A stretch of DNA of 64,000 bases from positions 66,129 through 130,128 of the forward strand of contig CAZUDZ010000002.1 of NCBI GenBank assembly GCA_964618765.1, in the 5' to 3' direction. The notes beneath the pieces were generated by a model. It ran no database searches, was not told the origin of the DNA, and saw only the letters and a list, made by a program, of their open reading frames with translations. Positions 11,655-64,000 of the stretch are shown piece by piece. The position numbers and the translations under genes are program-made. This stretch comes from an uncultured Candidatus Saccharibacteria bacterium (lineage in GTDB: Bacteria > Patescibacteriota > Dojkabacteria > SC72). Position 1 is the first letter of the stretch. Every line of letters starts with the position of its first letter.

Positions 11655-12602
11655 CTACTCACAGGAAAGTTGATTGTCAGCAATTTCACATGTTAACTCT
11701 GCAACTCCAGCCCCTTGGTTTGTTCGCCATTGAATAGTTTCTCCGTTGTAAAGAACCTTTGTGTTACTAACTCTCCCAGTTATTATGTAAAGTTTTTCTT
11801 TTATGGTAAATTCCTGCTTTGAGGGTTGTATAACCTCGGAAAGTTTGTTTTCGTCGTCAATGTCTAACCTTACCCAGGCAGGAGAATCAAATACTTCTAC
11901 TGTAATCGTATTTTCTCCAATCTCTTCTTTTTCTTCTTTCTTAACATCTTCTGTATCTTTTACATAGGTGACTTTTACAACCTCAACTCTTTCTAAAGAG
12001 CTATTCTTTCTTGCTTTTACTGTTACTGTATTGGAACCTTCTTTGAGGGCTATTTCTTTTTGGAAGGATCCATCATCCTCAATTTCTACTGCAGTTCCAT
12101 TAATTTCTAGAGTAACCTCTTTACTGGTTTCTCCTTTGAGTAAAATATCCTCAGAAGTTACTGTGCTTTCGTTTTGTGGTTGTGTAATCAGTAATTTCGG
12201 TGGGCTTTGGAATTTATATATTTGAAACCCTATATATCCTACAACCAAGAGTAAGAAGGTAATTAAAAAGATAGTGAGAAGGCTTTTAGGGTTTAAGAAA
12301 CTTAATGCTTTTTTCTTTCTATTGGTAAATACTTCCTCTCTAACTTCTTTTACCTTGTCTGTACTTTTCCTTGGGTTACTTCTTCTGTAAAGGGCCAGTA
12401 TCTTGCTTGTGTCTAATTCTAAGTACTGTGCGTATATTTTTATGAATCCTGTTAGGAACACCTCCGAGTCAAAGTAATCGAACTGATTATTTTCTATATA
12501 TTCAAGAAATCGTTTTTGAATCTTTGTATCTAAAGAGACTTTCTCTAGGCTTCTTTTAAGAATCTCTCTCTTGTTTTTTAAAACTTCTCCGGCTGTAAGC
12601 AT
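11655..12602 (-). CDS. RodZ-like cytoskeleton-associated protein (N-terminal HTH, single TM, C-terminal beta domain)
   Basis: ATG start; architecture of N-terminal helix-turn-helix, TM LLTIFLITFLLLVVGYIGF and extracytoplasmic C-terminus; immediately downstream of ftsK. Confidence 0.45.
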   Translation of the reverse strand: MLTAGEVLKNKREILKRSLEKVSLDTKIQKRFLEYIENNQFDYFDSEVFLTGFIKIYAQYLELDTSKILALYRRSNPRKSTDKVKEVREEVFTNRKKKALSFLNPKSLLTIFLITFLLLVVGYIGFQIYKFQSPPKLLITQPQNESTVTSEDILLKGETSKEVTLEINGTAVEIEDDGSFQKEIALKEGSNTVTVKARKNSSLERVEVVKVTYVKDTEDVKKEEKEEIGENTITVEVFDSPAWVRLDIDDENKLSEVIQPSKQEFTIKEKLYIITGRVSNTKVLYNGETIQWRTNQGAGVAELTCEIADNQLSCE

Positions 12603-12606
12603 GTTC

Positions 12607-14871
12607 CTATTCTACTACTTCTTGCGTGTCTGCGTCATCCTCTGTGAGTTTCTCAGATATCTGGTCTGGGGAGGTTATGAGAACTTTTCGTGGTTTAGAG
12701 CCTCTCTGGGGTCCTATAACTCCAGCTTCGTGTAGTTGGTCAATGATTCTTGCGGCCTTGTTGTATCCGATTCTCATTTTTCTTTGAAGGAAAGAGGAAG
12801 AGGCTCTCTGGGAAGACACTACTACTGCAAGAGCTTTCTCAAATTCAGGATCCCTTTGTTTCTGTCCTCCTGGTGAGTCATCGCTTGGTCCTTTCTCTAT
12901 GGCTTCTGCAAGATCTTCTGAGTATTTAACTTCTTCCTCGTCTACCTGATCTTTTATTGCCAGAATTACCATTTCAGAGTCTTCGGTAGTTGTGTTTGTT
13001 CCTTGTATTCTCAAAGCTTTTGGTGTGGTTTGATCTTTGTAGAGCATGTCTCCATTCCCAAGGAGGGTCTCAGCTCCAGATTCATCTAAGATTACCCTAG
13101 AATCCATACTGGTAGCGACAGCGAATGCCATTCTTCCTGGGATATTTGATTTAATTAATCCGGTTATTACATTAACAGTAGGCTTCTGTGTAGCTAGAAT
13201 TAAGTGTATTCCTACAGCTCTTCCCATTTGAGCAAGTCTTTGAATTTTAGTTTCAACTTCTAGTGCAGATGTCAGTATTAAATCTGCCATTTCATCTATT
13301 ACAACTATGATATATGGCATGGCTAGATATCCTACTTTCTTGTTGTACTCAGTTAATTTTTTAACTCTAACTTGTTTCAATTGCCTGTATCTTCTCATCA
13401 TCTCTTCTATTGTCCATTGCAAGGCATTAATAACGGATTCAGGGTCTGTTATGACAGGATTGAGAAGGTGAGGAATTCCATTGTATATGGACATTTCTAC
13501 TCCCATTTTAGGGTCTATCATTAAAAACTTCACTTCATCTGGACTTTTGGTCATCAAAAGACCTGTTAGTAAAGAATTAATTGCAACGGATTTCCCTGTT
13601 CCTGTAGCACCAGCGACAAGGAGATGTGGGATTTTTGCAAGATCTTTGATTCTTGTTTTTGCTGTAATATCTTTACCTAAAATCAATGGTAACTCGTATT
13701 TCTCTTTCTCTTTATTAAGCCTTGCTACCATCTCTTTGGCGTAGACGAAGTTAGGTGTAGGATTGGGGATTTCTACTCCAACATATGAAGTTCCTGGTAT
13801 GGGAGCTTCTATCCTTACAGATGATGTTTGTGAGGCTAGTGCTAATGCTAAATCATTGCTAAGGTTTTTAATTCTAGAAACCTTTGTTCCCACACTAATA
13901 CTTAAAGAGAACCTTAATACAGTAGGGCCTACTGCGACAGCGACTACAGTTCCTTGTATCCCGAAACTTCTTAATGTTTTTTCAATGATTAAAGCTTTTT
14001 CTTTGTAAAGTTCCTTGTCCTGTTCTTGTACCTGTGGCTCTTCTAGGATATCTGGGCTAGGGAATCTCCAGTTTTGGTATCTTGGCTTGTCAGGCTCTTT
14101 CTCTTCTGTCCCATCAGGAATGTTACTGCTCTTGACCGGATCATCAGAGTCAGAGCTTTCTTCTTGTGCTCTCTCTGATTCCTTTGTCCTGTCTTCAGTA
14201 AGAATACTATCAAGCCTTTTCTGAATTTCCTCTTCACTCTCTGGTTTTGGAGTATCATCATCGGCTTCCTCTTGCTCTATTGGAATAGCTAGATTGCTAG
14301 GGGTTTTTGTAGGAGAAAATCTTTTTAAGAAGGATCTAAGGAAGGAATCTGTCTTTTTCTCTTCCTCTGGTACAGAATCTTCAAGGAAATCTCTAATCTG
14401 TTCTAGTGTGGTCCCTGTTATCAAGGAGAAAGAGATGATTAGTAATATTAGTACAATTATTATTTCAATGAAGCTTCCAAAGAAATTGTTTAGGGACAGG
14501 TGGAGTACTTTTCCTAATTGCCCACCAGCTCCTCTTAGTGCGCTATTGCTCTCCAACTGTTCTTCAATCAGCCAGAAAGAGAGTAGTACGGTTAAACAGA
14601 GAGAGAAAAGAAGCAACCCTATGGCTTGTTTGGTAGAGGTAAATTTCCTTTTTTTGGTAAGAAGAAAAAGGGAGAGATATATTACAAGGGTGCCCCAAGC
14701 AATGGAGGAGTAGCCTAGGGAAAGCGTTACTTGGTCAAACAGAGGGGAATCTTCTGGTATGAAGGGGGAGATGAGGATGGAGAGTCCGACAAGGAAAAGG
14801 ATTAAACCGAATAAGATTTTGGTCTCACTGCTTTGAATAGTAATTGTTTTTTTCTTTTTCTTTCTGGGCAT
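12607..14871 (-). CDS. ftsK: DNA translocase FtsK (4-TM N-domain, acidic linker, RecA-like motor, gamma domain)
   Basis: ATG start; Walker A VAGATGTGKSV; Walker B VVIDEMADL; C-terminal gamma-domain-like YNKAARIIDQLHEAGVIGP; 754 aa. Confidence 0.9.
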   Translation of the reverse strand: MPRKKKKKTITIQSSETKILFGLILFLVGLSILISPFIPEDSPLFDQVTLSLGYSSIAWGTLVIYLSLFLLTKKRKFTSTKQAIGLLLFSLCLTVLLSFWLIEEQLESNSALRGAGGQLGKVLHLSLNNFFGSFIEIIIVLILLIISFSLITGTTLEQIRDFLEDSVPEEEKKTDSFLRSFLKRFSPTKTPSNLAIPIEQEEADDDTPKPESEEEIQKRLDSILTEDRTKESERAQEESSDSDDPVKSSNIPDGTEEKEPDKPRYQNWRFPSPDILEEPQVQEQDKELYKEKALIIEKTLRSFGIQGTVVAVAVGPTVLRFSLSISVGTKVSRIKNLSNDLALALASQTSSVRIEAPIPGTSYVGVEIPNPTPNFVYAKEMVARLNKEKEKYELPLILGKDITAKTRIKDLAKIPHLLVAGATGTGKSVAINSLLTGLLMTKSPDEVKFLMIDPKMGVEMSIYNGIPHLLNPVITDPESVINALQWTIEEMMRRYRQLKQVRVKKLTEYNKKVGYLAMPYIIVVIDEMADLILTSALEVETKIQRLAQMGRAVGIHLILATQKPTVNVITGLIKSNIPGRMAFAVATSMDSRVILDESGAETLLGNGDMLYKDQTTPKALRIQGTNTTTEDSEMVILAIKDQVDEEEVKYSEDLAEAIEKGPSDDSPGGQKQRDPEFEKALAVVVSSQRASSSFLQRKMRIGYNKAARIIDQLHEAGVIGPQRGSKPRKVLITSPDQISEKLTEDDADTQEVVE

Positions 14872-41490: not shown

Positions 41491-41496
41491 TTGAGC

Positions 41497-43092
41497 ATGA
41501 AATTAAGCTTTAGAAAAGATTTACACATCGCAACACTTAAGTCCGAGTCTTCTTGGAACAAGTTCAAGCTTCAAGCACTGTTGCAAAACTGTGAAAGCAA
41601 ACAACCCTCTATCAATGCATACCTTGGAGCAAGGTATAGTAGGTCTGCTGATTCCGTGTTGGATATTGCATCGGAAATAGTAGAGAACAATACTGATGCA
41701 GCAGAAAGGTTAGAAAAGATATTTTCTGGATATGGACACAAGTCTGTGGGAGATATGGCAGAGCTTTTTGTTTGTTTGGAGAATATTCCTATGTATACCG
41801 CTATGAAAGTCTTCTACATGACACCAGTTATCTCAGGACAAGAAAGATCTACAAGGTATCAGAACTTTCAAGATCCTAACTTTGTGAAAATCCCGAAAGA
41901 AGTATGTGATGATTATGAAGTAAGCAGAGAATATGAAAGGATAATGTTAAAAGAGATGAAAGATTACAGAGAGTTGTTAGGGACTACCAAAGATGCTCTT
42001 AAAAAGCATTTTAGGATAAATGAAGAAAGTCCCCAGGAGCTGTCTGCTCTGAAGGCTAGGTCATTTGACGTTGCTAGGTATCTTCTGCCATATGGTCTTA
42101 GTACAAGTGCAGCTTACCTCACCTCTGCAAGGAGTTGGTCAGATTTAATTAGTTTTATGTGTGCTAGTGACACGGTAGTTGAAAATGAGATATCTGAAAT
42201 GCTACTTAATCTACTAGGAGAATCTAAACTGGATGCGAGGGGATATATTAGAGAGGCAGATGGATTAATTAGACATACGGATGCAAACTGTTGTAGAAAA
42301 GCATCCACAGAGAAGATATTGCAGTATTTGAGAGAAGATATCTCTTACGAGCAAATAACTGATATCCCTGAGAATGAGAGTGATGCAGTTGGGATAGCAT
42401 ACTCTCCTGATTGTATGGAATCACTAATCTCTCACTATGAGTATTTAATAAATCCTTTAGGATCTAAAAAGGAATTCGAGTTTTCAGAAGAGGACCAAGA
42501 GAAGCTAGGAGAGATGATCTTTGAAACTCATGATCATCACAATCAGCTAGGAAATATTGGTCAATCTGGCGCTATAAAGATAGAAGGATTCGCAAGTTTA
42601 GGAACATTAAAAGATTTAAATAGGCATAGAAGTATGGAAAGATTCATACCTCTTTTACATGACGAAATAGATATGAACAGCGAATTAGATAGAAGGGATG
42701 ATCAATGTTTCTACCTATGTAACCATCTAGAAATAAATTCGCTCTCCAAGCTTAAGAAAGAGTATATAAAAAGATTAGTGGAAACATATCAACTGATTAG
42801 AGAGTGGAGAAAATTAGCAAAAAACCATCTCTCCAAGGAGGTATGTGATGAATTTACTAAGTATTTACTTCCTCATGCACATGCGACAAAGTATATTTTT
42901 TACGGTTCTTTTGATGATTTACAGTATGTGATTAATTTAAGGACAAGAAATGGTGGGCATATTGCATACAGGGTTCTAGTATATGAATGGTTAAAGAATC
43001 TTAATTACTTGGATCCGATATGGAGACCTCTTTTAAGGAAGATTGTAGAGCCTAAGGTCGATGACAAACATCAGTTTGTAGATAGAAGCTAA
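41497..43092 (+). CDS. thyX: Putative FAD-dependent thymidylate synthase ThyX, tandem-duplicated (two ThyX-like halves with complementary motif loss); start moved to ATG 41497 (the listed ORF begins at a TTG)
   Basis: Half 1: GHKSVGDMAE...FYMTPVISGQERSTRY aligns to the ThyX block GHETPFEH...FRHRIASYNELSGRY, keeping S-x-RY but losing RHR. Half 2: HDHHNQLG...LNRHRSMERF keeps RHR but lacks S-x-RY. Lies between glyA and dcd. Confidence 0.5.
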   Translation: MKLSFRKDLHIATLKSESSWNKFKLQALLQNCESKQPSINAYLGARYSRSADSVLDIASEIVENNTDAAERLEKIFSGYGHKSVGDMAELFVCLENIPMYTAMKVFYMTPVISGQERSTRYQNFQDPNFVKIPKEVCDDYEVSREYERIMLKEMKDYRELLGTTKDALKKHFRINEESPQELSALKARSFDVARYLLPYGLSTSAAYLTSARSWSDLISFMCASDTVVENEISEMLLNLLGESKLDARGYIREADGLIRHTDANCCRKASTEKILQYLREDISYEQITDIPENESDAVGIAYSPDCMESLISHYEYLINPLGSKKEFEFSEEDQEKLGEMIFETHDHHNQLGNIGQSGAIKIEGFASLGTLKDLNRHRSMERFIPLLHDEIDMNSELDRRDDQCFYLCNHLEINSLSKLKKEYIKRLVETYQLIREWRKLAKNHLSKEVCDEFTKYLLPHAHATKYIFYGSFDDLQYVINLRTRNGGHIAYRVLVYEWLKNLNYLDPIWRPLLRKIVEPKVDDKHQFVDRS

Positions 43093-43748: not shown

Positions 43749-45098
43749 CTACATCAGAGGAGGTGCAGGAGGAATATCTTCTGTGTTCCCATCGTCTTGT
43801 TGCTGATTGATGTTTCCTGGGACAGGAGGGTAAGGATTTGGTTCTACCGTAGGAGTACTCCCCATATTTAGATCTGGGAAATTATTTTGCTGATTAGGAG
43901 GTATTATTCCTGGAGCGTCTGTAGGAGGAGAAGTTCTTTGCATTTGACCAATCTCCCTGTCTATACTTCCTTGAGATTCATAATCGGGCTGTACAATCGA
44001 AGGATTATTTCGCATGTATATTTCAGGGTTCTCAGGAGGAGTTTGAGGGGGTTCTTGTGGAATATTTTGTGCTACTGGTGGATTACCCATTTGCTCGGAA
44101 GGAGGCATTGCCCCTGTGTTTAGATTAATACTAGGATTAAATGGTGTATCTTGGATACCTTGTGACTCTGGAGGAGTAGCACCTCCCTCTCTCTTAAGAA
44201 TTTCTTGCAAATCATCCTCTTGTGTCTCTGGAGCAATGTTTGCTACGGGTTCTCTCTGTTGTGGTGGTACTTGAGGAACATTTTGTTCAAAAGGAAATTG
44301 TGAAGGCTGTGGAGGTTGAATGTCTCGATAGGTTCCTGTTTCTACAGGAGCAGATTGTGGGACTTCCTTATTAACCATATTTCTCAACGTTGGTTCCTCT
44401 TTAGAGGCTTCCTGAGGAGAAGATTCTGACTCTTTCGGTTCTTTTGTGGGCTTCTTTTTTGTTAGTAGTATAACAATAATGCTTATTAGTAATATTACTG
44501 AAGCACCTATTAGAATATATGGAAGATATTCTGTAATGTTGTCTAGACTAAAGCCAGATTCAGATGTTGTTGTTATTGCTTGAGTATCTTGAGGAGTTAC
44601 TAGTAAATCATCTTCTACTGGGGTACCCTCCTGTTGTCCTTCTTCTAATGCTACAGCGGTATCCTGCTCGGGGACTCCAATATTAACGACTTCTCCCACG
44701 CTAAGTTCTCCTAGATCTAAAGCCTCATTTTCTAGAAGTTTAAAAGTGTATGATTCCTCAGTAGATGTGAATGAAATAATGGCAAGAACTCCATTGAGAG
44801 CTGTAGGTTTTTCTAACTCACAATTTATTACTGCAATATTGTCATCTTTCCCATCATCAGTAGAGAAAGTAGAACATTCCACATCTCCCTTTGAGATATT
44901 TACCACAGTAACATCACTTGAGAATTCTATGGGAAGGACGATGTTCTCAGCTAGATCAGCTTCTGTGTCTATGTTTATCTTTATTTCTTGTACATCTTGC
45001 TTAGTGTTATCAACCATTTCTATATTTACTGCTGCAAAGGCAGAGAATGGAATTAAAAGCATAAGAAAAGAAACCAAGATGGGATATGTTTTTTTCAT
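43749..45098 (-). CDS. Surface/membrane protein: signal peptide, Ig-like N-terminal region, one TM, long Pro/Gln-rich low-complexity C-terminal region
   Basis: N-terminal hydrophobic signal LVSFLMLLIPFSAFA; TM YILIGASVILLISIIVILLT; C-terminal 230 aa are rich in P/Q/N (PPQPSQFPFEQNVPQVPPQQ...). Confidence 0.5.
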   Translation of the reverse strand: MKKTYPILVSFLMLLIPFSAFAAVNIEMVDNTKQDVQEIKINIDTEADLAENIVLPIEFSSDVTVVNISKGDVECSTFSTDDGKDDNIAVINCELEKPTALNGVLAIISFTSTEESYTFKLLENEALDLGELSVGEVVNIGVPEQDTAVALEEGQQEGTPVEDDLLVTPQDTQAITTTSESGFSLDNITEYLPYILIGASVILLISIIVILLTKKKPTKEPKESESSPQEASKEEPTLRNMVNKEVPQSAPVETGTYRDIQPPQPSQFPFEQNVPQVPPQQREPVANIAPETQEDDLQEILKREGGATPPESQGIQDTPFNPSINLNTGAMPPSEQMGNPPVAQNIPQEPPQTPPENPEIYMRNNPSIVQPDYESQGSIDREIGQMQRTSPPTDAPGIIPPNQQNNFPDLNMGSTPTVEPNPYPPVPGNINQQQDDGNTEDIPPAPPLM

Positions 45099-45229
45099 AA
45101 TTAAGGCAGTTTATATTATCTTCTCTAAGATTATCATGCCAGATTTGCAATATCAATAGTAATTCGAAGTTAAGTTGACTTAATTCTTTTCTAAATATAC
45201 ACTTTAGTACAAAATTAAATCTGTCCACT

Positions 45230-46495
45230 ATGAACTATCCAAATTACAATTCAGCATTGCCAAGTCAAGATATTAATGCTGTTATAGATGAAAACTTAAA
45301 TGAAGTGTTAGAGTTGGAAAAGAAACTTATCTCTTCGAACACCCCTGAAGGACTTAAGGAAGAGGCTATGAGAGGAATCCAGAGGCTTAAGAGAATGTTT
45401 AGGATGGGAGGGTATAGTTCTGAGTTTGAAACGGTTAATAAGTATATTGATTGGGTTACAAGAATTCCTTGGGGAGTAATAAGTAGAGATAATCTGGATA
45501 TTCAGAATACAAGGAAACTAATGGATGAGAGTCATCACGGTATGGATACCATCAAAGAGCTGATCCTTGATTATCTTGCTACTATGCAATTACAATCTAT
45601 GGGAAGCATAGAGAGAGTTAGGAGAGAGAGTATTCCTTCGCAAATTCCTTATGTTAACTCTGTAGCTTCTAGTGGCTATCAACCTAACCCGCTATCTAAT
45701 TCTAGTCAGTTTACAAATTTTGAGCTTAAGAAAGATGAGGCAGCAATACTAAAAAGTTCTTCAGCAAATGCTCCTGTATTCCTGTTTGTTGGACTTCAAG
45801 GTGTAGGTAAAACGTCTATTGCGAAATCTATTGCAAGCTCTATGGGGAGAAAGTTTGCAAGAGTTTCCTTAGGTGCAATAGGTGATGTGAGGACTCTTAG
45901 AGGGACTCCAAGATACTCAGCTGACTCAGAACCAGGTCAAATTATAAAGGCTTTGATAAGATGCGGTACTATGAATCCCGTTATTCTTCTTGATGAGATT
46001 GAGAAATCTAGTGGGGAGAAAGGTTTGTTAAGTGATGTAATGGCTGTTCTCTTAGAGATTTTAGATCCAGAACAGAACTCTAGTTTTGTAGATCATTATA
46101 TAGATTATCCAGTTAACCTCTCACAGGTCTTTTTTATTTGTACTGCAAACAACCTAGGCGGTTTATCTGCTGCACTTTTAGATAGGGTTGAAGTTATTCG
46201 CTTTACAAGTTACTCGGATCAAGAAAAAGAGGTTATTGGTAGAGAGTATATTCTTCCCAAAGTATTGGAGAACTTAAATATATCTCCTGATTATATTAAA
46301 ATAGAGGATGAAGTTTGGCCATTGATCATAAGACCAGTGGGGTTTGATGCAGGGATAAGGCAGTTAGAAAGGAATGTTACAACTATTGTAAGAAGTGCAG
46401 CGAGGATGATAGTAGAGGGAAAGCCCTTGCCAATAATTATTAATAGTGGGAACTTAACCCAATATGTACTTGCAGATCAGGGCCCTCTAAGTTAA
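45230..46495 (+). CDS. Lon-like AAA+ ATPase module without the Lon N-terminal substrate domain and without the C-terminal protease domain
   Basis: YIDWVTRIPWG, Walker A GLQGVGKTS, Walker B ILLDEIEK, LEILDPEQNSSFVDHY, sensor CTAN and AALLDRVEVIRF all align collinearly with the central part of bacterial Lon (from memory of the E. coli LonA sequence); the ORF starts after a 131-nt intergenic region and stops where the protease domain would begin. Confidence 0.75.
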   Translation: MNYPNYNSALPSQDINAVIDENLNEVLELEKKLISSNTPEGLKEEAMRGIQRLKRMFRMGGYSSEFETVNKYIDWVTRIPWGVISRDNLDIQNTRKLMDESHHGMDTIKELILDYLATMQLQSMGSIERVRRESIPSQIPYVNSVASSGYQPNPLSNSSQFTNFELKKDEAAILKSSSANAPVFLFVGLQGVGKTSIAKSIASSMGRKFARVSLGAIGDVRTLRGTPRYSADSEPGQIIKALIRCGTMNPVILLDEIEKSSGEKGLLSDVMAVLLEILDPEQNSSFVDHYIDYPVNLSQVFFICTANNLGGLSAALLDRVEVIRFTSYSDQEKEVIGREYILPKVLENLNISPDYIKIEDEVWPLIIRPVGFDAGIRQLERNVTTIVRSAARMIVEGKPLPIIINSGNLTQYVLADQGPLS

Positions 46496-46507: not shown

Positions 46508-46792
46508 TTAATATCCCTTGAAAGGGTTGATTAATCTTAAAGATGAAACAGCTCTTCTTACTTGAGGGTTTGCTATTCCCTTGCTTATATCAGCCTTATA
46601 TCCTTGTTTCTCTTCTGCCTTACACAGTAGAGAGAGGTCTTCATTAACTTTTTCCTTGTTTAAACTGTTTGTATCTACGGACTCTGTTACAAGATAATCT
46701 GAGATATTTATCTCATTGGTAGGGTAAGCATCTTTCTGTTTGTCTTTAGTATTGTCTTGTTTGTTCATCTTCTTTTGACGGATAGCTTTCAA
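46508..46792 (-). CDS. Small lysine-rich hypothetical protein (possible last gene of the VirB4-like operon); start uncertain
   Basis: Open frame downstream of and overlapping the 3' end of the VirB4-like gene by 47 nt; no recognisable motif. Confidence 0.25.
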   Translation of the reverse strand: MKAIRQKKMNKQDNTKDKQKDAYPTNEINISDYLVTESVDTNSLNKEKVNEDLSLLCKAEEKQGYKADISKGIANPQVRRAVSSLRLINPFKGY

Positions 46793-49211
46793 TTAATCCT
46801 TGTGGGGTTAAGTGTCCCCTTCCTCTTTGTATATCTTCTCTTGATTTTACAGTCTGTCCAGATACTGTTCCCTCCCTTACTTCATCTAATATCGTCCTTT
46901 CTTTCAGAAACTTCTTTGGATTTAGTTCTCTCTCTTGTTGGTTTAATCTTTCCTGTAGTTCCCTTTGATACTCTTCTCTTTCGCTACTTATCGTATTTTT
47001 TTGTCCTTTTGTTCTTTCTATGGCCTCTTTAATAATGAGATCTTGTCTCTCCATCGTTTTCCCGTCTCTCATAGGTTTCTGTTCTGTTGGAGGATCAAAT
47101 ATCTCAGAAAGTTCAGCAACTGTTCTTGTATCTGTTTGACCTTCTCTTTCCTTCATTTTTGCTAGGTCTCTTGGGTCTGAAGTTATTAGTTCGTGTTCTG
47201 CAACGCTAGAGAGTACCTGTATTCCTACATGGTTTGATCCTGCAAAGAATAGTCCTTGGCCTTGATCGCAGTTAAGTAAGAAGTTCTTCTCTCCGTCTGA
47301 GAGGTTGAATACTTCTTGTAATTTCTCTACAGCTGTAGGGCTTTGCATCATTAGCATTTGTATTGAAGAGTTGGAGATTATTGCTTTGCCCATATCTGTG
47401 TTTAAGAAATCTGCTACATCTTGCGTGATGGTAGAAAGTCCTAAATAGTACTTTCTGGCTCTCTTAGCAATAGAGTACATAAAGTTGGCAGAATCCTCTG
47501 ACTGCATCATATACCAAGCTTCATCTACTATTAGTAATCTTCTCTTTTTCTCCTTCCTGATTTTAGTCCAAATGAAATCAAGCATTAGGTACATCGCTAG
47601 AGGTTTTAGCTCCTCTTGTAGATCTCTTACACTGAAAACTGTAAACGGATTGTTTATTTCGAAGTTACTGGCTTCGTTGAATACACCTGCTCCACTTCCG
47701 ATTATGAACTTTTCTAATCTTCTTGCTAGACCATGGGCTTCTGTTTCGGCCATTCCCTTAAGTACTTTGTAAAGATCTTCTAGCATAGGAGGTGTTTTAG
47801 TTTGTGTATTAGGATCAAATGTAATACCTTTCTCTCTATATGTGAGAATTAATGCTCTATCTAGTATAGAGTTCTCTATGTTTGTCAGTTTACCTAACAT
47901 AACCTTAAAGAATCCTTGAAGAGCCAGTAGCTTCATTCTTAATTCGTCATCGCCCTCTTCTGTTACACCAGAAAGTTCGAATGGATTCATCTTGTTTCCT
48001 TTGTCCTGTGAGAACGATATGTATGCACCATTAACGGCATTAGCGAGGTCTTCGTATTCTCTCTCTGGATCTATTATTAATATCTCTGTTCCAAGCATTA
48101 AGCTTCTTACGGCTTCAAGTTTTACAAAGTAGCTCTTTCCAGCACCTGATTTAGCAAATATCACGGCATTTGCATTTTCCAGTTCAAATCTGTCAAAGAT
48201 TACAAGACTTCTATTATGTAAATTAAGCCCATACATTATCCCATGATCCATTGTTAACTCAGAGGTTACAAATGGAAAGGTTGTAGCAAGAGAGGTAGTA
48301 TCCATGTTTCTTGTTATGTACAGATTGTCCAGTCCTAAAGGTTGTGAACTTACAAAGCCTTGTTCCTGTTGAAGCGTTGCAGGCTTCGCAGTTACATTAA
48401 TAGCGGCAAGTGTTGAGGTTACATTTCTAGAGATCTTCTCTAGAGCTTCTTGGTCTTTTGCGTAGAGTGTGATGTACATAGAAAAATGAAAAAACTTTTC
48501 TGTTCCTTCCGCGATAGAGTCTTGGAGTTGTTGAGCGTCTGAGAGTGCTACCTTTAAAGAAGGGTCTACTACTTTTCTTTCTTCCATCTGGGAGTAGAGG
48601 GATGCTTCCATTTCTCCTATCTTTTTCTTTAACTTCTCTAGAATGGTTTTGTTGTCTACGGGATAATAGAAGGAGCTAATTCTGAGAGAATGTTCAAAGT
48701 TTATTATTGGAGAAAGCCAGTTTGGCCCTACGAATCTTGGATATCCACTTACAAAAAGAGTTTTAAAGAAGTAAGATCCCATTTGGATATTATTGAAGTC
48801 TACCTCTAGATCTATTGGTGCGATGATGTCCTGAATGGACATATCTGGTGGTATTAGGTCATGGGTTTGCTCTCTCTCTGTATCAGTATCTAAAACAACC
48901 TCTTCTTCCTTTTGTTCCTTTTTTGCTTTCTTCTCCTTCTTCTTTCCAACAAGCCCAGCTATCTTATCAAGGGTTTTTATTATGAAGTTCTTTTTTTTCT
49001 TTTTATTTTCTGTAGACTCGGGGTCATTGTATCTATTAAATTTTTCTTTTTCATTGTTTTTCTCCTCTGCCTCTTTTTTAATATTAAGAACTTCCTGTTG
49101 AAGATCGGTGTATTTCTCTCCAGGAGTTTTTAGTTTCTCTTGTTGTTTTGTTAACATCTCCGATGTCTTTGTTTGAAAACTTCGATTGTAGTTGTTATTT
49201 GTTTCGTCCAT
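46746..49211 (-). CDS. VirB4/TrbE/PrgJ-like type IV secretion ATPase with Lys/Glu-rich N-terminal extension
   Basis: Walker A IFAKSGAGKSYF followed by IIDPEREY; Walker B LLIVDEAWYM (DEAW); N-terminal domain FFKTLFVSGYPRFVGPNWLSPIIN resembles the VirB4 N-domain; the start is TAATG-coupled to the upstream gene stop. Confidence 0.6.
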   Translation of the reverse strand: MDETNNNYNRSFQTKTSEMLTKQQEKLKTPGEKYTDLQQEVLNIKKEAEEKNNEKEKFNRYNDPESTENKKKKKNFIIKTLDKIAGLVGKKKEKKAKKEQKEEEVVLDTDTEREQTHDLIPPDMSIQDIIAPIDLEVDFNNIQMGSYFFKTLFVSGYPRFVGPNWLSPIINFEHSLRISSFYYPVDNKTILEKLKKKIGEMEASLYSQMEERKVVDPSLKVALSDAQQLQDSIAEGTEKFFHFSMYITLYAKDQEALEKISRNVTSTLAAINVTAKPATLQQEQGFVSSQPLGLDNLYITRNMDTTSLATTFPFVTSELTMDHGIMYGLNLHNRSLVIFDRFELENANAVIFAKSGAGKSYFVKLEAVRSLMLGTEILIIDPEREYEDLANAVNGAYISFSQDKGNKMNPFELSGVTEEGDDELRMKLLALQGFFKVMLGKLTNIENSILDRALILTYREKGITFDPNTQTKTPPMLEDLYKVLKGMAETEAHGLARRLEKFIIGSGAGVFNEASNFEINNPFTVFSVRDLQEELKPLAMYLMLDFIWTKIRKEKKRRLLIVDEAWYMMQSEDSANFMYSIAKRARKYYLGLSTITQDVADFLNTDMGKAIISNSSIQMLMMQSPTAVEKLQEVFNLSDGEKNFLLNCDQGQGLFFAGSNHVGIQVLSSVAEHELITSDPRDLAKMKEREGQTDTRTVAELSEIFDPPTEQKPMRDGKTMERQDLIIKEAIERTKGQKNTISSEREEYQRELQERLNQQERELNPKKFLKERTILDEVREGTVSGQTVKSREDIQRGRGHLTPQGLIESYPSKEDEQTRQY

Positions 49212-49849
49212 TACTCTTCGTCAGGATTATATATGGTATAAAATTCAGAAAGGAGTTCTTTAGTAGTTAATTGATGTCCAAAGAGACCCATTCTACTTAA
49301 CTGTTTTAATACATGGTCTCTTTTTGGGTAGAGAAATATTTTAGCCTTTTCGAGAAGTTGTTCTTCTTTCATTCCTTTTGCTTTTTCTTCTTCTTCTTTT
49401 GTTTTACGGACATCAAGAATGTTTGACCCTGGAATCGGGGCTCCTGGACTGTAGGGGATTACTATAAAGAAGTTTTTATCCAAAACATCATTTTGTACAA
49501 TTAATTTCTGTACAAAATGGGTATATATATTTAGTTGTTTTCTTAATCCTTCGCTAATCTCTGCTCTGTCGAGATTTGCTTTCAGATAGTCTAAATAGTT
49601 AGAGATATCGATTCTCTTTGTTCTGATTAGTATTTGGATTCGAAAATTTAAAGAATTGAGAAAACCAGCAAAAGCATATATTTTATTATCTTGTTCATAC
49701 TCTGCCAGAAGATCAAAGTTAATGGAGGAAGTTTGTATAACCATAGTGACACTTCCCTTACTAGTTATTATTAAATCATCTAAGATATCTTTAATCCCAA
49801 GATGATCTTGTGTTGATTCTGTTGCTCTTGCTCTAGTTTTCTTGTCCAC
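49211..49849 (-). CDS. Hypothetical soluble protein encoded between the PrgI-like and VirB4-like genes (T4SS-associated by context)
   Basis: Tight coupling: 1-nt gap to the upstream gene, and its stop overlaps the VirB4-like start; no recognised motif. Confidence 0.4.
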   Translation of the reverse strand: MDKKTRARATESTQDHLGIKDILDDLIITSKGSVTMVIQTSSINFDLLAEYEQDNKIYAFAGFLNSLNFRIQILIRTKRIDISNYLDYLKANLDRAEISEGLRKQLNIYTHFVQKLIVQNDVLDKNFFIVIPYSPGAPIPGSNILDVRKTKEEEEKAKGMKEEQLLEKAKIFLYPKRDHVLKQLSRMGLFGHQLTTKELLSEFYTIYNPDEE

Positions 49850-49850
49850 T

Positions 49851-50684
49851 TTAAATGCTATTAATTTTAATTGGTGCTTTGTCTTCCTTATTCATAATTT
49901 CTAATTGAACCTCCGGGAACCTATACACAGGATGTTGAAATTCTAACATATATGTTCCTGGATCCCACAGTTTGTTTGTAAGGAAGTATCCACTCTCTCC
50001 TGTTTTATTTGCATACAGAATTTTTCTTTCAGAATTTTTAAGATAAGTTATGACATTGGGTATTGGTTTTAAATCTTTTGTAGAAAGCCAAATATTTATA
50101 TTTCCTGGTAATCTGTCCTGGCTTTTAATCTGAAATTGGTAGTTAGAAATATTTTCCTTCGTTATGATCAGGAAATTAGGATCTACAGGAGATGGAGTAA
50201 CCAGTTCAGGATCCACAGTAAGTTGCTCATCTAGCATATCACTTACCTCATCCTCTGCGAGAATATCTTTCTTGATGGGGAGAGCCTCTCCGATTATCTT
50301 GTTCTTTTTAACCTTTACATCCGTAGGAATCAGTCGACCTTCTTGGTCAGGTTTAACATTAGGTTTAATTCCTTTGTTCTCCATATCCTTTGTCAACCAA
50401 ACTCTTTGTGTGGGAGCTGTAATTGCACTTATGTAATTTTTAATAAAGACATCAGCATCTTGGTCATTAATGGGGACTAGTCCTAAGAATATTCCAGCAC
50501 TAGCAGAGAAGATGAAAACAGGTATTCCTAAAATCGCAGGGAGTACATTGCTGACAACTAGATAAATCATTACTCCTCCAAAACCAAGCCCTATCGCTAG
50601 GTAGGCGAATTCCTTAAGTGTAAACTTTGTAAAGAGTTTAAATTCAACATCTAATATATTTTGAGGAATGGCATGTTGTCTCAT
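49851..50684 (-). CDS. PrgI/VirB3-like membrane protein (N-terminal TM hairpin) with C-terminal extracytoplasmic domain
   Basis: N-terminal KLFTKFTLKEFAYLAIGLGFGGVMIYLVV...PVFIFSASAGIFLGLV fits the K-x-x-F-x-F-T-x-x-Q/E pre-TM pattern of PrgI/VirB3-like proteins; first gene of the operon. Confidence 0.4.
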   Translation of the reverse strand: MRQHAIPQNILDVEFKLFTKFTLKEFAYLAIGLGFGGVMIYLVVSNVLPAILGIPVFIFSASAGIFLGLVPINDQDADVFIKNYISAITAPTQRVWLTKDMENKGIKPNVKPDQEGRLIPTDVKVKKNKIIGEALPIKKDILAEDEVSDMLDEQLTVDPELVTPSPVDPNFLIITKENISNYQFQIKSQDRLPGNINIWLSTKDLKPIPNVITYLKNSERKILYANKTGESGYFLTNKLWDPGTYMLEFQHPVYRFPEVQLEIMNKEDKAPIKINSI

Positions 50685-50747: not shown

Positions 50748-51578
50748 ATGTCTCTTTATTTCCTTTATAATACAGCTATGCAAACAGCACAGAAAGCGTT
50801 CTTAAATCTAATTAAGTTCAGATCCGCTATGAATTTAACTCTCTCTAGGGATGATATCAAATATATATGGGGGAGAAGATTTCTGAGAAACTGGGAGACA
50901 AGCAAAGAGAAAGAACTAAGTAGGGAGATTAAAAAGATTAGAGAGAATGAAAATGAGTATGTAGCTAGAAAGATTGAGATTGTAAAGGAGCAGGTATCAA
51001 AATTGAAGGTCTTTGATTGGGTACAGTTCATTGGAATATCGGGATCGGTAGCCGCGGGGTTTGCCAAGGAAGATGATGATATTGATGTTTTTATAGTAGT
51101 TAAAAATGGAACGGTATGGTTATATAGGGTTATTATAATTTTAAGGAATCTTTTCCATAATAAAATTCGTGCTAAGAGGCATAAGAATGTAAAAAATAAG
51201 TTATGTCTTAATCTCATATGCGAGGAGAGGGGAGTACAGTTTCCCAATGATATCTTTAATTTTCATGAACTAATCTTTCTTAAACCTCTATATAACGGAA
51301 AGTATAAAAATTACATCTTCTCACAGAACGCATGGTTAGAGAGGGAGTATTTTGTTAAAAAAGAATTGCTTAGAACAAGAGTAGTTTCTCAAAAAGATGC
51401 ATTTCTCGTAATTAAGATAGCTAACCATCTAGCATTCATTGCTCAGTTAGTATTCATGAGTATTTCAAGACATAATCCAGAGATTGGAAGACTCAAGGAA
51501 AATTTTAAGAAAGGGAAGATAGAGTTTTTTGACCAGGATTTTAGAGAAGATAAGTTAACAAAGTTTTTCAAAAATTAA
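50748..51578 (+). CDS. Polymerase-beta-superfamily nucleotidyltransferase domain protein with about 90-aa N-terminal helical extension
   Basis: GISGSVAAGFAKEDDDIDVFIVV matches the hG[GS]x9-13-DxD nucleotidyltransferase motif at residues 95-117; 276 aa. Confidence 0.55.
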   Translation: MSLYFLYNTAMQTAQKAFLNLIKFRSAMNLTLSRDDIKYIWGRRFLRNWETSKEKELSREIKKIRENENEYVARKIEIVKEQVSKLKVFDWVQFIGISGSVAAGFAKEDDDIDVFIVVKNGTVWLYRVIIILRNLFHNKIRAKRHKNVKNKLCLNLICEERGVQFPNDIFNFHELIFLKPLYNGKYKNYIFSQNAWLEREYFVKKELLRTRVVSQKDAFLVIKIANHLAFIAQLVFMSISRHNPEIGRLKENFKKGKIEFFDQDFREDKLTKFFKN

Positions 51579-62671: not shown

Positions 62672-64000
62672 TTAATCTAATACGGCCTTTATCCTTTTTA
62701 TTCCTGCTCCTACGTTCTCTTGTTTTACAATTTTTAATTTTGTTAATTCCTTAGTGTTTTGTACGTGAGGGCCATTACATATCTCTACGGAGAAGGGATT
62801 ATCTTTTGGACCAATGTAGTACAGCTTGACTATGTCCCCGTATTTTTCTACAAAGGATGCAGTAGAAGAATACTTATCTATGATTTTAAGAGCCTCCTCT
62901 TTAGACTTGTCCTCATGTGATATTTCTAGACCTTTATCGATTACATCATTGACAATATCTTCTACTTGTCTAATTTGCTCTGGTGTTAGTTTAGATTTGT
63001 TTGGATAGTCCAACCTTAATCTTTCTGAAGTAATATTACTACCCATTTGATATACATGTTCTCCAAGTACCTTGCGTAGTGCAACAAGTAGTAGGTGTGT
63101 AGCGGTATGATATTTGATTGATATCTCTGAAGTGTCTGCTAGTCCTCCCTTGAACAGTCCTTTAGATGCACCTCTGGATTTCTCTTGATGTTTTTGTTGT
63201 GCTTTAAAAAAGCTTTCCCTATCTTGAAGTGTAATGTTTTTTTCTTGCAAAATCTCCTCTGTTACTTCGAGGGGTAATCCGTATGTTTCGTAAAGCTTGA
63301 ATGCCATATCTCCGTCTACCAAACTTTCGCTAGTCAGTAACCGTTCTAGTTCTTTAAGGCCATTTTCTAAGGTCTTACTAAATTTTATTTCTTCTTTTTC
63401 TATGATTTTCAAGATCTCATTTTTCTTCTTTTCTAAATCAGGATATATTTCAGAGAACTGTTCTATTGCAACTTTTGCCACCTCTTTTGTAAAGAGGTTC
63501 TCTATGCCCAGTTTCCTTCCATGTCTTACTGCCCTTCTAATTAATCTTCTAAGGACATATCCTTGCTGATTGCTTCCTGGTAGCACTCCATCCATAATGA
63601 TCCAAGTAGCAGCCTTTATATGATCTACTATGATTCTTTCCGATTTAACATTACTGACTTTTCCTAGCTCTTGGACTTTTTGTAGTATTGGTTTGTAAAT
63701 ATCTATCTCGTATATACTATCTACTCTTTGTATAAGGGCAGCTATCCTTTCTAGTCCTCCTCCAAAATCTACATTATGTCTGCCAAGTGGAGTAAAAGAG
63801 TTTCCTTTCTTGAAATACTCCATGAAGACATTGTTGCCGATTTCTACATATTTGCCACAATTACAATTAATGTTGCAATCACTACAACATTCCTCTTTAC
63901 CTGTATCGTAGAAAATTTCAGAATCTGGACCACACGGTCCACCTGACTCTAGTCCCCACCAATTTTCTTTCTTTCCATACTTTTGGATTCTTTCTTTTGC
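62672..64000 (-). CDS. alaS: Alanine--tRNA ligase, 5'-truncated by window edge (C-terminal portion including the editing domain present)
   Basis: The frame stays open to nt 64000, encoding W...GPCGPDSEIFYD (class II AlaRS catalytic motif); downstream HTATHLL editing-domain zinc motif; the listed ORF start at 63823 is internal. Confidence 0.85.
   Translation of the reverse strand, partial: AKERIQKYGKKENWWGLESGGPCGPDSEIFYDTGKEECCSDCNINCNCGKYVEIGNNVFMEYFKKGNSFTPLGRHNVDFGGGLERIAALIQRVDSIYEIDIYKPILQKVQELGKVSNVKSERIIVDHIKAATWIIMDGVLPGSNQQGYVLRRLIRRAVRHGRKLGIENLFTKEVAKVAIEQFSEIYPDLEKKKNEILKIIEKEEIKFSKTLENGLKELERLLTSESLVDGDMAFKLYETYGLPLEVTEEILQEKNITLQDRESFFKAQQKHQEKSRGASKGLFKGGLADTSEISIKYHTATHLLLVALRKVLGEHVYQMGSNITSERLRLDYPNKSKLTPEQIRQVEDIVNDVIDKGLEISHEDKSKEEALKIIDKYSSTASFVEKYGDIVKLYYIGPKDNPFSVEICNGPHVQNTKELTKLKIVKQENVGAGIKRIKAVLD

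Follow-up and report, generated by a model that had tools for sequence, protein, structure and literature searches.

The window analysed here, a stretch of DNA of 64,000 nucleotides, carries a gene for a 421-aa protein that aligns with the central part of the LonA protease. The features of the gene and its product are listed below.

45175..45203, + strand: weak promoter-like site TTGACT-17-TACACT, 26 nt before the start codon (consensus scan, 9/12 matches)
45230..46495, + strand: gene for a 421-aa protease-less Lon-like AAA+ ATPase, stop codon included (ORF list, ATG start)
45263..45601, + strand: residues 12-124, helical region equivalent to the LonA segment preceding the ATPase, i.e. the end of the long helix plus the NTD3H bundle (phmmer, AF2)
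45596..45763, + strand: residues 123-178, Ser-rich, disordered, length-variable insertion in the linker preceding ATPase strand 1 (unaligned to Lon)
45764..46219, + strand: residues 179-330, AAA+ alpha/beta subdomain (Pfam AAA)
45899..45937, + strand: residues 224-236, pore-loop 1, RGTPRYSADSEPG, versus canonical RGHRRTY(I/V)GAMPG (family-versus-Lon alignment)
46220..46468, + strand: residues 331-413, Lon-type lid (alpha subdomain) with sensor-2 R377 (Pfam Lon_lid, PDB alignments to residue 413)
46469..46495, + strand: residues 414-421, conserved C-terminus LADQGPLS plus stop, at the start of LonA's ATPase-protease linker

The gene is preceded by an intergenic region of 131 nt (45099-45229), in which nine promoter-like sites were observed against 5.5 ± 2.4 expected from shuffles, and a terminator scan of the 12-nt gap on its 3' side found none. 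A first-pass annotation, made from the sequence alone, had described the product as a stand-alone Lon AAA+ module. Every motif that it quoted was recovered in the translation of 45230..46495: YIDWVTRIPWG (residues 72-82), GLQGVGKTS (188-196), ILLDEIEK (252-259), CTAN (304-307), LDPEQNSSFVDHY (278-290), and AALLDRVEVIRF (314-325). The key AAA+ residues are Walker A G188-T195 (GLQGVGKT), Walker B D255-E256, sensor-1 N307, and the Arg finger R319.

Pfam analysis of the product returned AAA (residues 185-326, E 4.6e-19) and Lon_lid (residues 350-398, E 1.3e-8) alone, with neither Lon_C (PF05362) nor LON_substr_bdg (PF02190) matched. Against NCBIfam, TIGR00763 'lon' scored 309.3 bits with a cut-off of 608, its best stretch covering model positions 347-567 of 795, and NF008053 scored 220.9 bits with a cut-off of 891; at E ≤ 0.01 these LonA models were followed by weak Clp-type matches and by no LonB- or LonC-type model. 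A phmmer search of the PDB retrieved LonA chains at E 1e-69 as two collinear stretches, the first aligning query residues 23-122 with the helical pre-ATPase region of MtaLonA and BsLonA (57-62 bits) and the second aligning residues 177/180-398/413 with the LonA AAA+ module (174-181 bits). AF2 placed helices at residues 12-35, 40-58, 65-78, 91-101, and 106-124, with pLDDT values of 80-93 in the helical region, and the top 50 Foldseek matches to the predicted fold were all LonA or LONP1 (best E ~1e-27). These results bore out the description as a Lon AAA+ module: by alignment, the protein corresponds to LonA residues ~220-585, comprising the pre-ATPase helices, the AAA+ alpha/beta subdomain, and the Lon lid. 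The ORF ends at the linker that leads into the Ser-Lys protease domain in LonA, so that its limits, after an intergenic region and before the protease domain, are those first proposed.

Residues 123-178 could not be aligned to Lon. This segment contains 13 Ser in 56 residues, is gapped in most homologues, and was modelled as disordered (pLDDT <50 for residues 126-180). The first-pass annotation had reported an approximately 55-aa Ser/Asn-rich insertion replacing the segment just upstream of Walker A; the Ser-rich stretch is present at that place, but it is inserted into a normally short linker and replaces nothing.

Every Lon is said to combine an ATPase domain with a protease domain (PMC9569914). 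With LonA (endopeptidase La, MEROPS S16 subfamily A; MtaLonA, BsLonA, EcLon, human LONP1), the protein shares the collinear pre-ATPase helices and the AAA+/lid module, ~40-46% identity to canonical Lon within the ATPase module, identical key residues in Walker A/B, sensor-1, the Arg finger, and sensor-2, and a predicted fold closest to LonA. It differs from LonA in having no LON substrate-binding N domain (PF02190) and no Ser-Lys protease domain (PF05362), in falling below the TIGR00763 cut-off (309 versus 608 bits), in its Walker A sequence (GLQGVGKT versus GPPGVGKT), in the change of LonA YTrEaGVR to RPxGfDaGiR, in the disordered linker insertion, and in its pore loops, where neither the pore-loop-1 Tyr nor the pore-loop-2 aromatic is conserved.

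The natural N-terminus lies near the laboratory truncation point of N-truncated LonA constructs (PDB 4ypl, 8k3y_F MtaLonA 'AAAP', and 3m6a BsLon), query residue 23 aligning with residue 20 of the 570-aa 8k3y_F chain, and PDB 6n2i (E. coli Lon AAA+ domain) is likewise an AAA+ module without protease. However, such constructs are artificial fragments of a protease with canonical pore loops, whereas the protein described here is a natural stand-alone product with altered ones. LonC of Meiothermus taiwanensis (MtaLonC) is also a natural Lon-family member that gave up one activity (PMC3391209; PMC13069640), but as a mirror image, keeping the protease with an ATPase-dead module where the present protein keeps the ATPase residues and is missing the protease. 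No match to the LonB, LonBA, or LonC subfamily models was obtained, and no B- or C-type protease domain is present. ClpX and ClpB/Hsp104 resemble the protein as ring ATPases without a covalently attached protease; they keep aromatic-hydrophobic pore loops for threading, which the protease-less Lon-like family does not. Matches to ClpA, ClpB, ClpC, and CLPB (E 1e-5 to 6e-10) were far weaker than those to LonA.

Relatives of the protein are encoded in at least 157 species-level genomes (GTDB species representatives). The 120 relatives among the matches listed showed identities of 64-100% and were all 365-425 aa long, and the identical protein (100%) was found on seven other contigs. The top homologues were all protease-less proteins of 343-507 aa, with no ordinary full-length Lon among them, and the nearest representatives among 1.84 billion proteins were also protease-less, with AAA and Lon_lid as their only domains and a Walker A of the form G[LIV][QVAP]GxGKT instead of GPPGVGKT. 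The ORF could be traced in 76 loci; in every one of them the stop codon lay exactly 234 residues past Walker A, and 68 of these 76 species loci ended in QGPLS. The family alignment showed a mean column identity of 67% and more than 100 invariant positions, many of them within the helical pre-ATPase region.

A Lon N domain or protease domain encoded in an adjacent frame was looked for with tblastn, using as queries the first 230 aa (N domain) and the last 200 aa (P domain) of 3-4 canonical Lon proteins; there were zero matches in the 64-kb window and zero in any frame of 98 related loci (1.47 Mb). A candidate degenerate protease tail in the Dojkabacteria relative P0144 was rejected, its 187-aa C-terminal tail being Ser/Asn-rich low-complexity sequence with no Lon_C remnant. 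Taken as a whole, the pattern of conservation identifies the Lon-like ATPase as a naturally selected, stand-alone gene product under strong purifying selection, in agreement with the earlier view that the gene is no decayed pseudogene.

Judged from the alignments, the family is derived from LonA and occurs in two related Patescibacteria (CPR) groups, Dojkabacteria/WS6 and the Microgenomates group, with thousands of sequence clusters across these two large CPR lineages. The sister subfamily, widespread in Microgenomates-group bacteria, is 347-398 aa long (118 members among the matches listed) and ends in FLP[TS]W, versus DQGPLS in Dojkabacteria; the length-variable linker insertion is mostly restricted to the Dojkabacteria branch. 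As the first-pass annotation had supposed, this is no standard annotated family: no dedicated Pfam or NCBIfam model for a protease-less Lon-like family was found, and the names given in databases are 'AAA family ATPase' or, in error, 'ATP-dependent Lon protease' (JGI/IMG). Taxon labels of MAGs are unreliable, many Dojkabacteria-like MAGs in the species listing being labelled Saccharibacteria. A search with a canonical CPR Lon (P0186) retrieved full-length 'endopeptidase La' entries, showing that canonical Lon is present in Patescibacteria; most of the entries listed were labelled Parcubacteria/Paceibacteria, two Roizmanbacteria/Microgenomates, and none Dojkabacteria, and the canonical CPR sequences carry PF02190. 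A literature search on protease-less Lon, or on Lon from Dojkabacteria, Patescibacteria, or Microgenomates, retrieved no relevant work.

We aligned 120 core (close) and 20 distant family members with 63 canonical Lon proteins and compared functional residues. The Walker A Lys, Walker B Asp-Glu, sensor-1 Asn, trans Arg finger, and sensor-2 Arg were present in 140/140 family members and 63/63 canonical Lon, and the residues predicted to bind and hydrolyse ATP in the ring are thus all invariant. The pore loops showed a different pattern. At the pore-loop-1 Tyr column, Tyr was found in all 63 canonical Lon and in 0/120 core members; five of the 20 distant members have Phe, and 14 of the 20 have no aromatic anywhere in pore-loop 1. 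The canonical motif is replaced by an acidic loop with an invariant E-P-G at its end, in most cases D-A-E-P-G. The pore-loop-2 aromatic was likewise absent from the core members (0/120), and among the Microgenomates members listed only 19 of 118 have an aromatic in pore-loop 1. In MtaLonA, degradation requires Tyr397 and Trp431, both of which contact the substrate (PMC8503904). By this comparison, the two pore-loop aromatics with which LonA grips and pulls the polypeptide are lost or displaced. Some substrate gripping may be possible in the Dojkabacteria branch, since in 103/120 of its members a Tyr immediately precedes the canonical position.

Neighbourhood analysis showed that the gene is convergent with a VirB4-like operon, its stop codon lying 12 nt from the end of the convergent ORF (46508). 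The gap and the operon are as first described, but the gene directly adjacent is a small ORF of 94 aa that closes the operon, and not VirB4 itself. A VirB4 homologue lies within 12 kb in 86/91 loci. In Dojkabacteria, the whole ~20-kb block (GroEL...FolD-GlyA-ThyX-DCD...RecF-LepA) is syntenic; in a distant genome (P0122, 64% identity), both outer flanks have changed and the LonAAA-(M23)-small-VirB4-TrsD-PrgI-NTase block is retained. The virB4 linkage is limited to Dojkabacteria and one neighbouring lineage and is absent in the seven other contexts examined, no VirB4 lying within 10 kb in Microgenomates and the other distant members examined. The VirB4 adjacency is therefore Dojkabacteria-specific synteny, and the linkage was rejected as functional evidence.

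In Microgenomates, the gene lies in a co-directional array with few-nt gaps, DnaK-DnaJ-NusA-IF2-S15-PNPase-[gene]-(RNase J)-FtsK-RodZ-like. It follows PNPase by 3-50 nt in 3/3 loci, with RNase J (overlapping in locus L099) and/or FtsK plus a RodZ-like gene downstream. The context in P0145 is DUF4012-[gene]-FtsA-like...FtsK, and GroES/GroEL lie close to the gene in two other lineages. In Dojkabacteria, FtsK and the RodZ-like gene are 30 kb off (at 11655-14871 in the window). The neighbourhoods vary by lineage, with no consistent functional partner.

[quoted passage not shown] The protein would still form a Lon-like hexameric ATPase and may act as an ATP-driven remodelling or chaperone-like housekeeping factor; it would not be a processive threading unfoldase feeding a protease, nor have a dedicated role in the neighbouring secretion system. 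An unfoldase function is made less plausible by the non-conservation of the pore-loop-1 Tyr and the pore-loop-2 aromatic, the substrate contacts of LonA. Proteolytically inactive Lon has been proposed to act in a chaperone-like manner. A bolder version, which we offer tentatively and hold to be possible though not probable, is that Dojkabacteria, and perhaps most of the Microgenomates group, have no Lon protease and use a repurposed Lon ring whose aromatic 'paddles' have been swapped for acidic D-A-E-P-G.

Should the ring instead belong to a split protease, it would dock on a peptidase encoded elsewhere (Lon_C-like, ClpP-like, or HslV-like) or regulate canonical Lon as a co-assembled subunit. 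The protein does end exactly at the linker between ATPase and protease, Patescibacteria do have canonical Lon, and the extreme C-termini (DQGPLS; FLP[TS]W) are strongly conserved, recalling the docking tails of other AAA+ partners. However, the two subfamilies have different C-terminal motifs, for the most part homologous to the (Y/F)LG with which the LonA lid ends, the 1.47 Mb of DNA flanking the 98 loci held no Lon_C-like sequence, and the loss of the translocating pore-loop residues argues against the feeding of a proteolytic chamber. None of the contigs listed for canonical Lon could be matched to one listed for the family, which is weak evidence in the same direction. We consider such a partnership unlikely.

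The first-pass annotation had also suggested a dedicated unfoldase for a secretion or uptake substrate and had proposed, as a check, an analysis of co-occurrence with VirB4-like genes across related genomes. On that reading, the protein would be an unfoldase or secretion chaperone preparing substrates for the adjacent VirB4/TrsD/PrgI, at least in Dojkabacteria, in keeping with the 12-nt convergent arrangement, the VirB4 homologue near most loci, and the retention of the LonAAA-to-NTase block in P0122 despite different outer flanks. Yet the adjacency is not specific, because the whole 20-kb block is syntenic, and it is lost in Microgenomates and other distant members; the Lon-like gene and the operon are convergent and therefore not co-transcribed; and the pore-loop aromatics are lost. 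Pfam analysis of the Lon-like protein found no T4SS domain (VirB4, VirD4, or VirB11 homology). The adjacency is lost in these members although VirB4 occurs in 18/20 Patescibacteria classes surveyed, and the survey of genes near virB4 reports no AAA/Lon-like component (PMC12102498). A T4SS role thus appears improbable, and the co-occurrence, while numerically real, does not sustain it.

If the arrangement PNPase-[gene]-RNase J-FtsK-RodZ-like is taken as the older context, the protein could be a factor in nucleic-acid metabolism or cell division (RNA turnover, chromosome segregation, or division). The close spacing to PNPase, the RNase J, FtsK, and RodZ-like genes downstream, and the P0145 context are compatible with this, as is DNA binding by LonA (PDB 6n2i is titled 'DNA-binding ATP-dependent protease La'). 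However, the arrangement is not kept in Dojkabacteria, and an acidic DAEPG pore loop would be unexpected for a nucleic-acid translocase. Adjacency to PNPase and FtsK is itself weak evidence, because long co-directional housekeeping arrays are typical of small genomes. We therefore regard this role, too, as doubtful.

A defence-type AAA+ (BrxL-like or another anti-phage module), for which there is generic resemblance and a weak PADLOC match to DolB (35.9 bits, E 1.2e-9, over the AAA core), is effectively refuted: the sole link to BrxL of BREX is the first-pass annotation's mention of Lon-like modules in that protein, PADLOC gave no BrxL or other specific match, GC content is uniform, and in more than 150 species the gene sits at a conserved, syntenic, single-copy place on the chromosome, surrounded by housekeeping genes, with no adjacent defence genes and outside any defence island. 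A pseudogene, a frameshifted lon, or a chimeric assembly fragment, suggested by the truncated architecture and nothing else, is refuted by the conservation data, namely the identical protein on seven independent contigs, the intact ORF with the same stop in every species locus traced, the invariant catalytic residues, and the absence of N or P domain remnants in any frame of the window and the 98 loci, and also by the convergent gene just 12 nt past the stop.

Lon ranks among the most conserved machines of protein quality control. In the literature searched, every Lon subfamily is an ATPase fused to a protease; the family described here appears to be the motor without the protease, the substrate-recognition domain, or the gripping residues. 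While the type IV secretion system of Patescibacteria would gain no component from it, metabolic and proteostasis reconstructions may credit these organisms with a missing protease, because the JGI/IMG name is 'ATP-dependent Lon protease'. If the bolder version holds, automated 'Lon protease present' calls based on such names would be wrong for the Dojkabacteria and Microgenomates lineages, and a non-threading mode, e.g. ATP-gated binding and release of basic clients, would be a different way of working for an HCLR-clade AAA+ protein. The Lon-like ATPase is retained in ~0.7-Mb genomes, where little dispensable DNA survives. The family may show what a Lon ATPase can do without proteolysis, and would provide a natural minimal Lon ATPase for structural studies.

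The ORF under study encodes a LonA-derived protein that ends at the ATPase-protease linker. A 131-nt intergenic region lies upstream of it, and a convergent 94-aa ORF, the terminal gene of a PrgI/VirB3-like - TrsD-like - VirB4 operon, ends 12 nt past its stop codon; the first-pass annotation gave this distance and orientation correctly, the immediate neighbour being the small ORF rather than VirB4.

Features of the window, with the Microgenomates counterpart of the gene
11655-14871, reverse: FtsK and RodZ-like pair, 30 kb from the Lon-like gene
41491-43092, forward: ThyX gene, 533 aa, two Thy1 (PF02511) stretches
43749-45098, reverse: 449-aa protein, no Pfam or PADLOC match
45230-46495, forward: protease-less Lon-like ATPase gene, ATG start, 421 aa
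46469-46492, forward: its conserved C-terminus (DQGPLS)
46508-46792, reverse: conserved small ORF (94 aa), overlapping the VirB4 end
46746-49211, reverse: VirB4, T4SS core cluster
49211-49849, reverse: TrsD/TraC-like gene, T4SS core cluster
49851-50684, reverse: PrgI/VirB3-like gene, T4SS core cluster
50748-51578, forward: nucleotidyltransferase-domain gene, kept beside the T4SS cluster in 51 loci
62672-63823, reverse: alanyl-tRNA synthetase ORF, 383 aa, tRNA-synt_2c (positions 212-435) and SAD domain
10001-11071 (locus coordinates): Lon-like ATPase gene in the Microgenomates loci L097, L098, and L099

Pfam analysis of the 421-aa product revealed AAA (185-326) and Lon_lid (350-398) with neither Lon_C nor LON_substr_bdg, in agreement with the stand-alone module proposed earlier, and all motifs quoted for it were present in the translation. 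The NCBIfam model TIGR00763 ('lon') gave 309 bits where its cut-off is 608, with only model positions 347-567 of 795 in the best stretch, and the families ranked after it (ClpA and others) scored at most 38 bits. The top PDB-sequence matches were LonA chains (E 1e-69) aligned in two collinear stretches, with residues 23-122 corresponding to the helical region N-terminal to the ATPase and residues 177/180-398/413 to the AAA+ module. The N-terminus lies approximately where laboratory N-truncations of LonA begin (residue 23 aligns with position 20 of 8k3y_F, a 570-aa chain). An AlphaFold2 model from 41 homologues (mean pLDDT 73) contained the expected helices and Rossmann-like core, and its best Foldseek matches were all LonA/LONP1 (E ~1e-27), confirming the likeness to LonA noted earlier. 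Residues 123-178 fell outside all alignments, contained 13 Ser in 56 residues, and were disordered in the model; the previously noted Ser-rich segment of about 55 aa is present, but it is inserted in a linker that is normally short rather than replacing a segment. We consider this identity and architecture very probably correct.

The identical protein occurred on seven other contigs with unchanged neighbours. The best 120 relatives in a collection of 5.8 billion proteins were all 365-425 aa long (64-100% identity) with AAA and Lon_lid only, named 'AAA family ATPase [Candidatus Dojkabacteria bacterium]' at NCBI and 'ATP-dependent Lon protease' at JGI. Scanning one genome per GTDB species identified a relative in at least 157 species; among the 80 loci retained (58-79% identity, Dojkabacteria/WS6-type MAGs), the stop lay exactly 234 residues past the Walker A start in 76/76 traceable loci, with QGPLS as the C-terminus in 68. 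With the first 230 and the last 200 residues of canonical Lon sequences as queries, tBLASTn detected no Lon N or protease domain in any reading frame, either in the 64-kb window or in 98 related loci (1.47 Mb). This conservation, the fixed stop, and the empty search therefore exclude a pseudogene, frameshift, or assembly chimera, in line with the earlier view that this is not a decayed lon, and leave a negligible chance that the gene is an artefact.

When 1.84 billion cluster representatives were searched exhaustively with phmmer, the nearest relatives (database entries P0121, P0122, P0126, P0129, P0134, P0136, P0137, P0141, P0145, P0148, P0149, P0153, and P0155) were all protease-less rather than ordinary full-length Lon, had AAA and Lon_lid only, and ended within about 6 residues of the query C-terminus. 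The relative P0144 carried a 187-aa C-terminal tail, which was rejected as a protease remnant because it is low-complexity and Ser/Asn-rich. Walker A in these nearest relatives reads G[LIV][QVAP]GxGKT, versus GPPGVGKT in canonical Lon. A profile built on the distant members brought up a large subfamily whose proteins are 347-398 aa long, assigned where NCBI-named to the Microgenomates group, Gottesmanbacteria, Shapirobacteria, and Roizmanbacteria, with Walker A GLVGTGKT in 115/118 listed members and a conserved C-terminal FLP[TS]W. Within a family common to two related CPR lineages, the window gene thus represents the Dojkabacteria branch, which is characterised by the long disordered insertion; Microgenomates members have a short linker. 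The extreme C-termini are kept but branch-specific (DQGPLS-COOH in 68/76 Dojkabacteria loci; FLP[TS]W-COOH in Microgenomates, P0293-P0410) and may represent structural or docking tails. Many Dojkabacteria-like GTDB MAGs are titled 'uncultured Candidatus Saccharibacteria bacterium' at NCBI, such taxon labels being unreliable. Unrelated to this family, P0123 (1113 aa, Candidatus Dependentiae), P0124 (1233 aa), P0125 (997 aa), and about 40 further phmmer representatives have 2-3 Lon-type AAA+ modules in tandem followed by a single Lon_C; Pfam detected no LON N domain in the three named proteins.

Alignment of 120 close and 20 distant family members with 63 canonical LonA modules revealed that the Walker A Lys, Walker B Asp-Glu, sensor-1 Asn, Arg finger, and sensor-2 Arg were present in 140/140 family and 63/63 canonical sequences. 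The pore-loop-1 Tyr, which in MtaLonA (Tyr397) touches the translocating substrate and is needed for degradation (PMC8503904), was found in 63/63 canonical modules, whereas this column held Ser, Ala, Glu, Val, or Thr in the close members (aromatic in 0/120; a Tyr lies one residue upstream in 103). Pore-loop 1 lacked any aromatic in 14/20 distant members and had one in only 19 of the 118 listed Microgenomates members. The pore-loop-2 aromatic position (MtaLonA Trp431) was Leu, Val, or Ile in 120/120 close members. Canonical RGHRRTY(I/V)GAMPG was replaced by a variable stretch with a conserved acidic (D/E)(A/S/N)EPG end, of which E234, P235, and G236 are invariant across the Dojkabacteria branch; the pore loops are re-modelled and acidic. 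Judged from these residue patterns, the ATP-hydrolysis machinery is under strict selection, including the trans-acting Arg finger, which makes sense only in a ring, while the residues making LonA a polypeptide translocase are not.

Such a protein would assemble into a Lon-like hexamer and hydrolyse ATP, would be incapable of degradation by itself, and would be unlikely to thread polypeptides processively, which would leave a role in general cell physiology, either chaperone-like or in remodelling, and driven by ATP. On balance we favour the combined explanation of a LonA-derived architecture and a non-proteolytic housekeeping ATPase; its functional part, predicted from sequence, is tentative. 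The first alternative, in which the protein works with a peptidase from another locus or forms rings together with canonical Lon, seems rather unlikely. A CPR full-length Lon as seed retrieved at least 120 canonical 'endopeptidase La' proteins (PF02190, AAA, and Lon_C); by their unreliable MAG labels, most of those listed were Parcubacteria/Paceibacteria, two were Roizmanbacteria/Microgenomates, and none was Dojkabacteria. No contig shared by the listed entries and known carriers of the truncated family was recognised. This distribution is compatible with Lon replacement in Dojkabacteria.

A Dojkabacteria-specific T4SS role, close to the dedicated unfoldase suggested in the first-pass annotation, is doubtful. 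The gene adjoined a T4SS operon in 86/91 Dojkabacteria loci, but the whole ~20 kb is syntenic there (GroEL, ABC, FolD, GlyA, ThyX, DCD, the gene, small ORF, VirB4, TrsD-like, PrgI-like, nucleotidyltransferase, RecF, LepA). The only hint of specific linkage was the more distant P0122 genome, where the outer flanks differ and the gene still lies two genes from the VirB4 cluster. No VirB4 occurred within 10 kb in the genomes of relatives P0271 (L25, the gene, FtsA-like, GroES-GroEL-ClpB), P0145 (DUF4012, the gene, FtsA-like, FtsK), P0280 (divergent from GroES), and P0147 (unrelated genes), or in three Microgenomates genomes (L097, L098, and L099). The latter carry HrcA-GrpE-DnaK-DnaJ-NusA-IF2-S15-PNPase, the gene, (UDG), (RNase J), FtsK, and RodZ-like in a co-directional array with overlaps or gaps of a few nt; its PNPase-RNase J-FtsK context suggests a connection with RNA turnover or with division, a reading of similarly low probability. 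A survey of Patescibacteria T4SS neighbourhoods lists VirB4, TrsD, PrgI/VirB3, VirB6, and VirB2-like proteins and does not mention a Lon-like or AAA component (PMC12102498). PADLOC matched the gene neither to BrxL nor to any other specific defence model, and a defence role is highly improbable. Block-wide synteny, the missing VirB4 elsewhere, the silent survey, and the empty PADLOC result leave the T4SS and defence links unsupported; the family has the character of a housekeeping gene, with neighbours that vary by lineage.

The T4SS core cluster at 46508-50684 (reverse strand) is of the kind typical for Patescibacteria. ThyX is usually about half as long as the 533 aa found here; the double length is kept in other Dojkabacteria loci (531-532 aa), and the gene may be a tandem fusion. 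The 449-aa protein is hydrophobic at its N-terminus and in a segment near its middle, is rich in Pro and Gln throughout its C-terminal half, and is poorly conserved (homologue in only 43/91 loci; an aminotransferase instead in locus L005). The N-terminal part of the alanyl-tRNA synthetase may be a separate ORF or lie past the window end.

Although built from LonA parts, the protein lacks the defining N and protease domains of LonA, falls below its curated cut-off, and has lost the canonical pore loops. All Lons have been described as having both ATPase and protease domains (PMC9569914). Among natural proteins LonC comes closest in spirit, but as the converse: it retains the protease and has lost ATPase activity (PMC3391209, PMC13069640), whereas the present family keeps the ATPase residues without the protease. 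The literature searched describes neither a protease-less Lon family nor Lon in Dojkabacteria, Patescibacteria, or Microgenomates, and this well-supported family is apparently undescribed. Its sequences are plentiful in databases, where their names are generic or wrong, and 'ATP-dependent Lon protease' (JGI/IMG) on protease-less proteins and Saccharibacteria MAG titles are annotation pitfalls.
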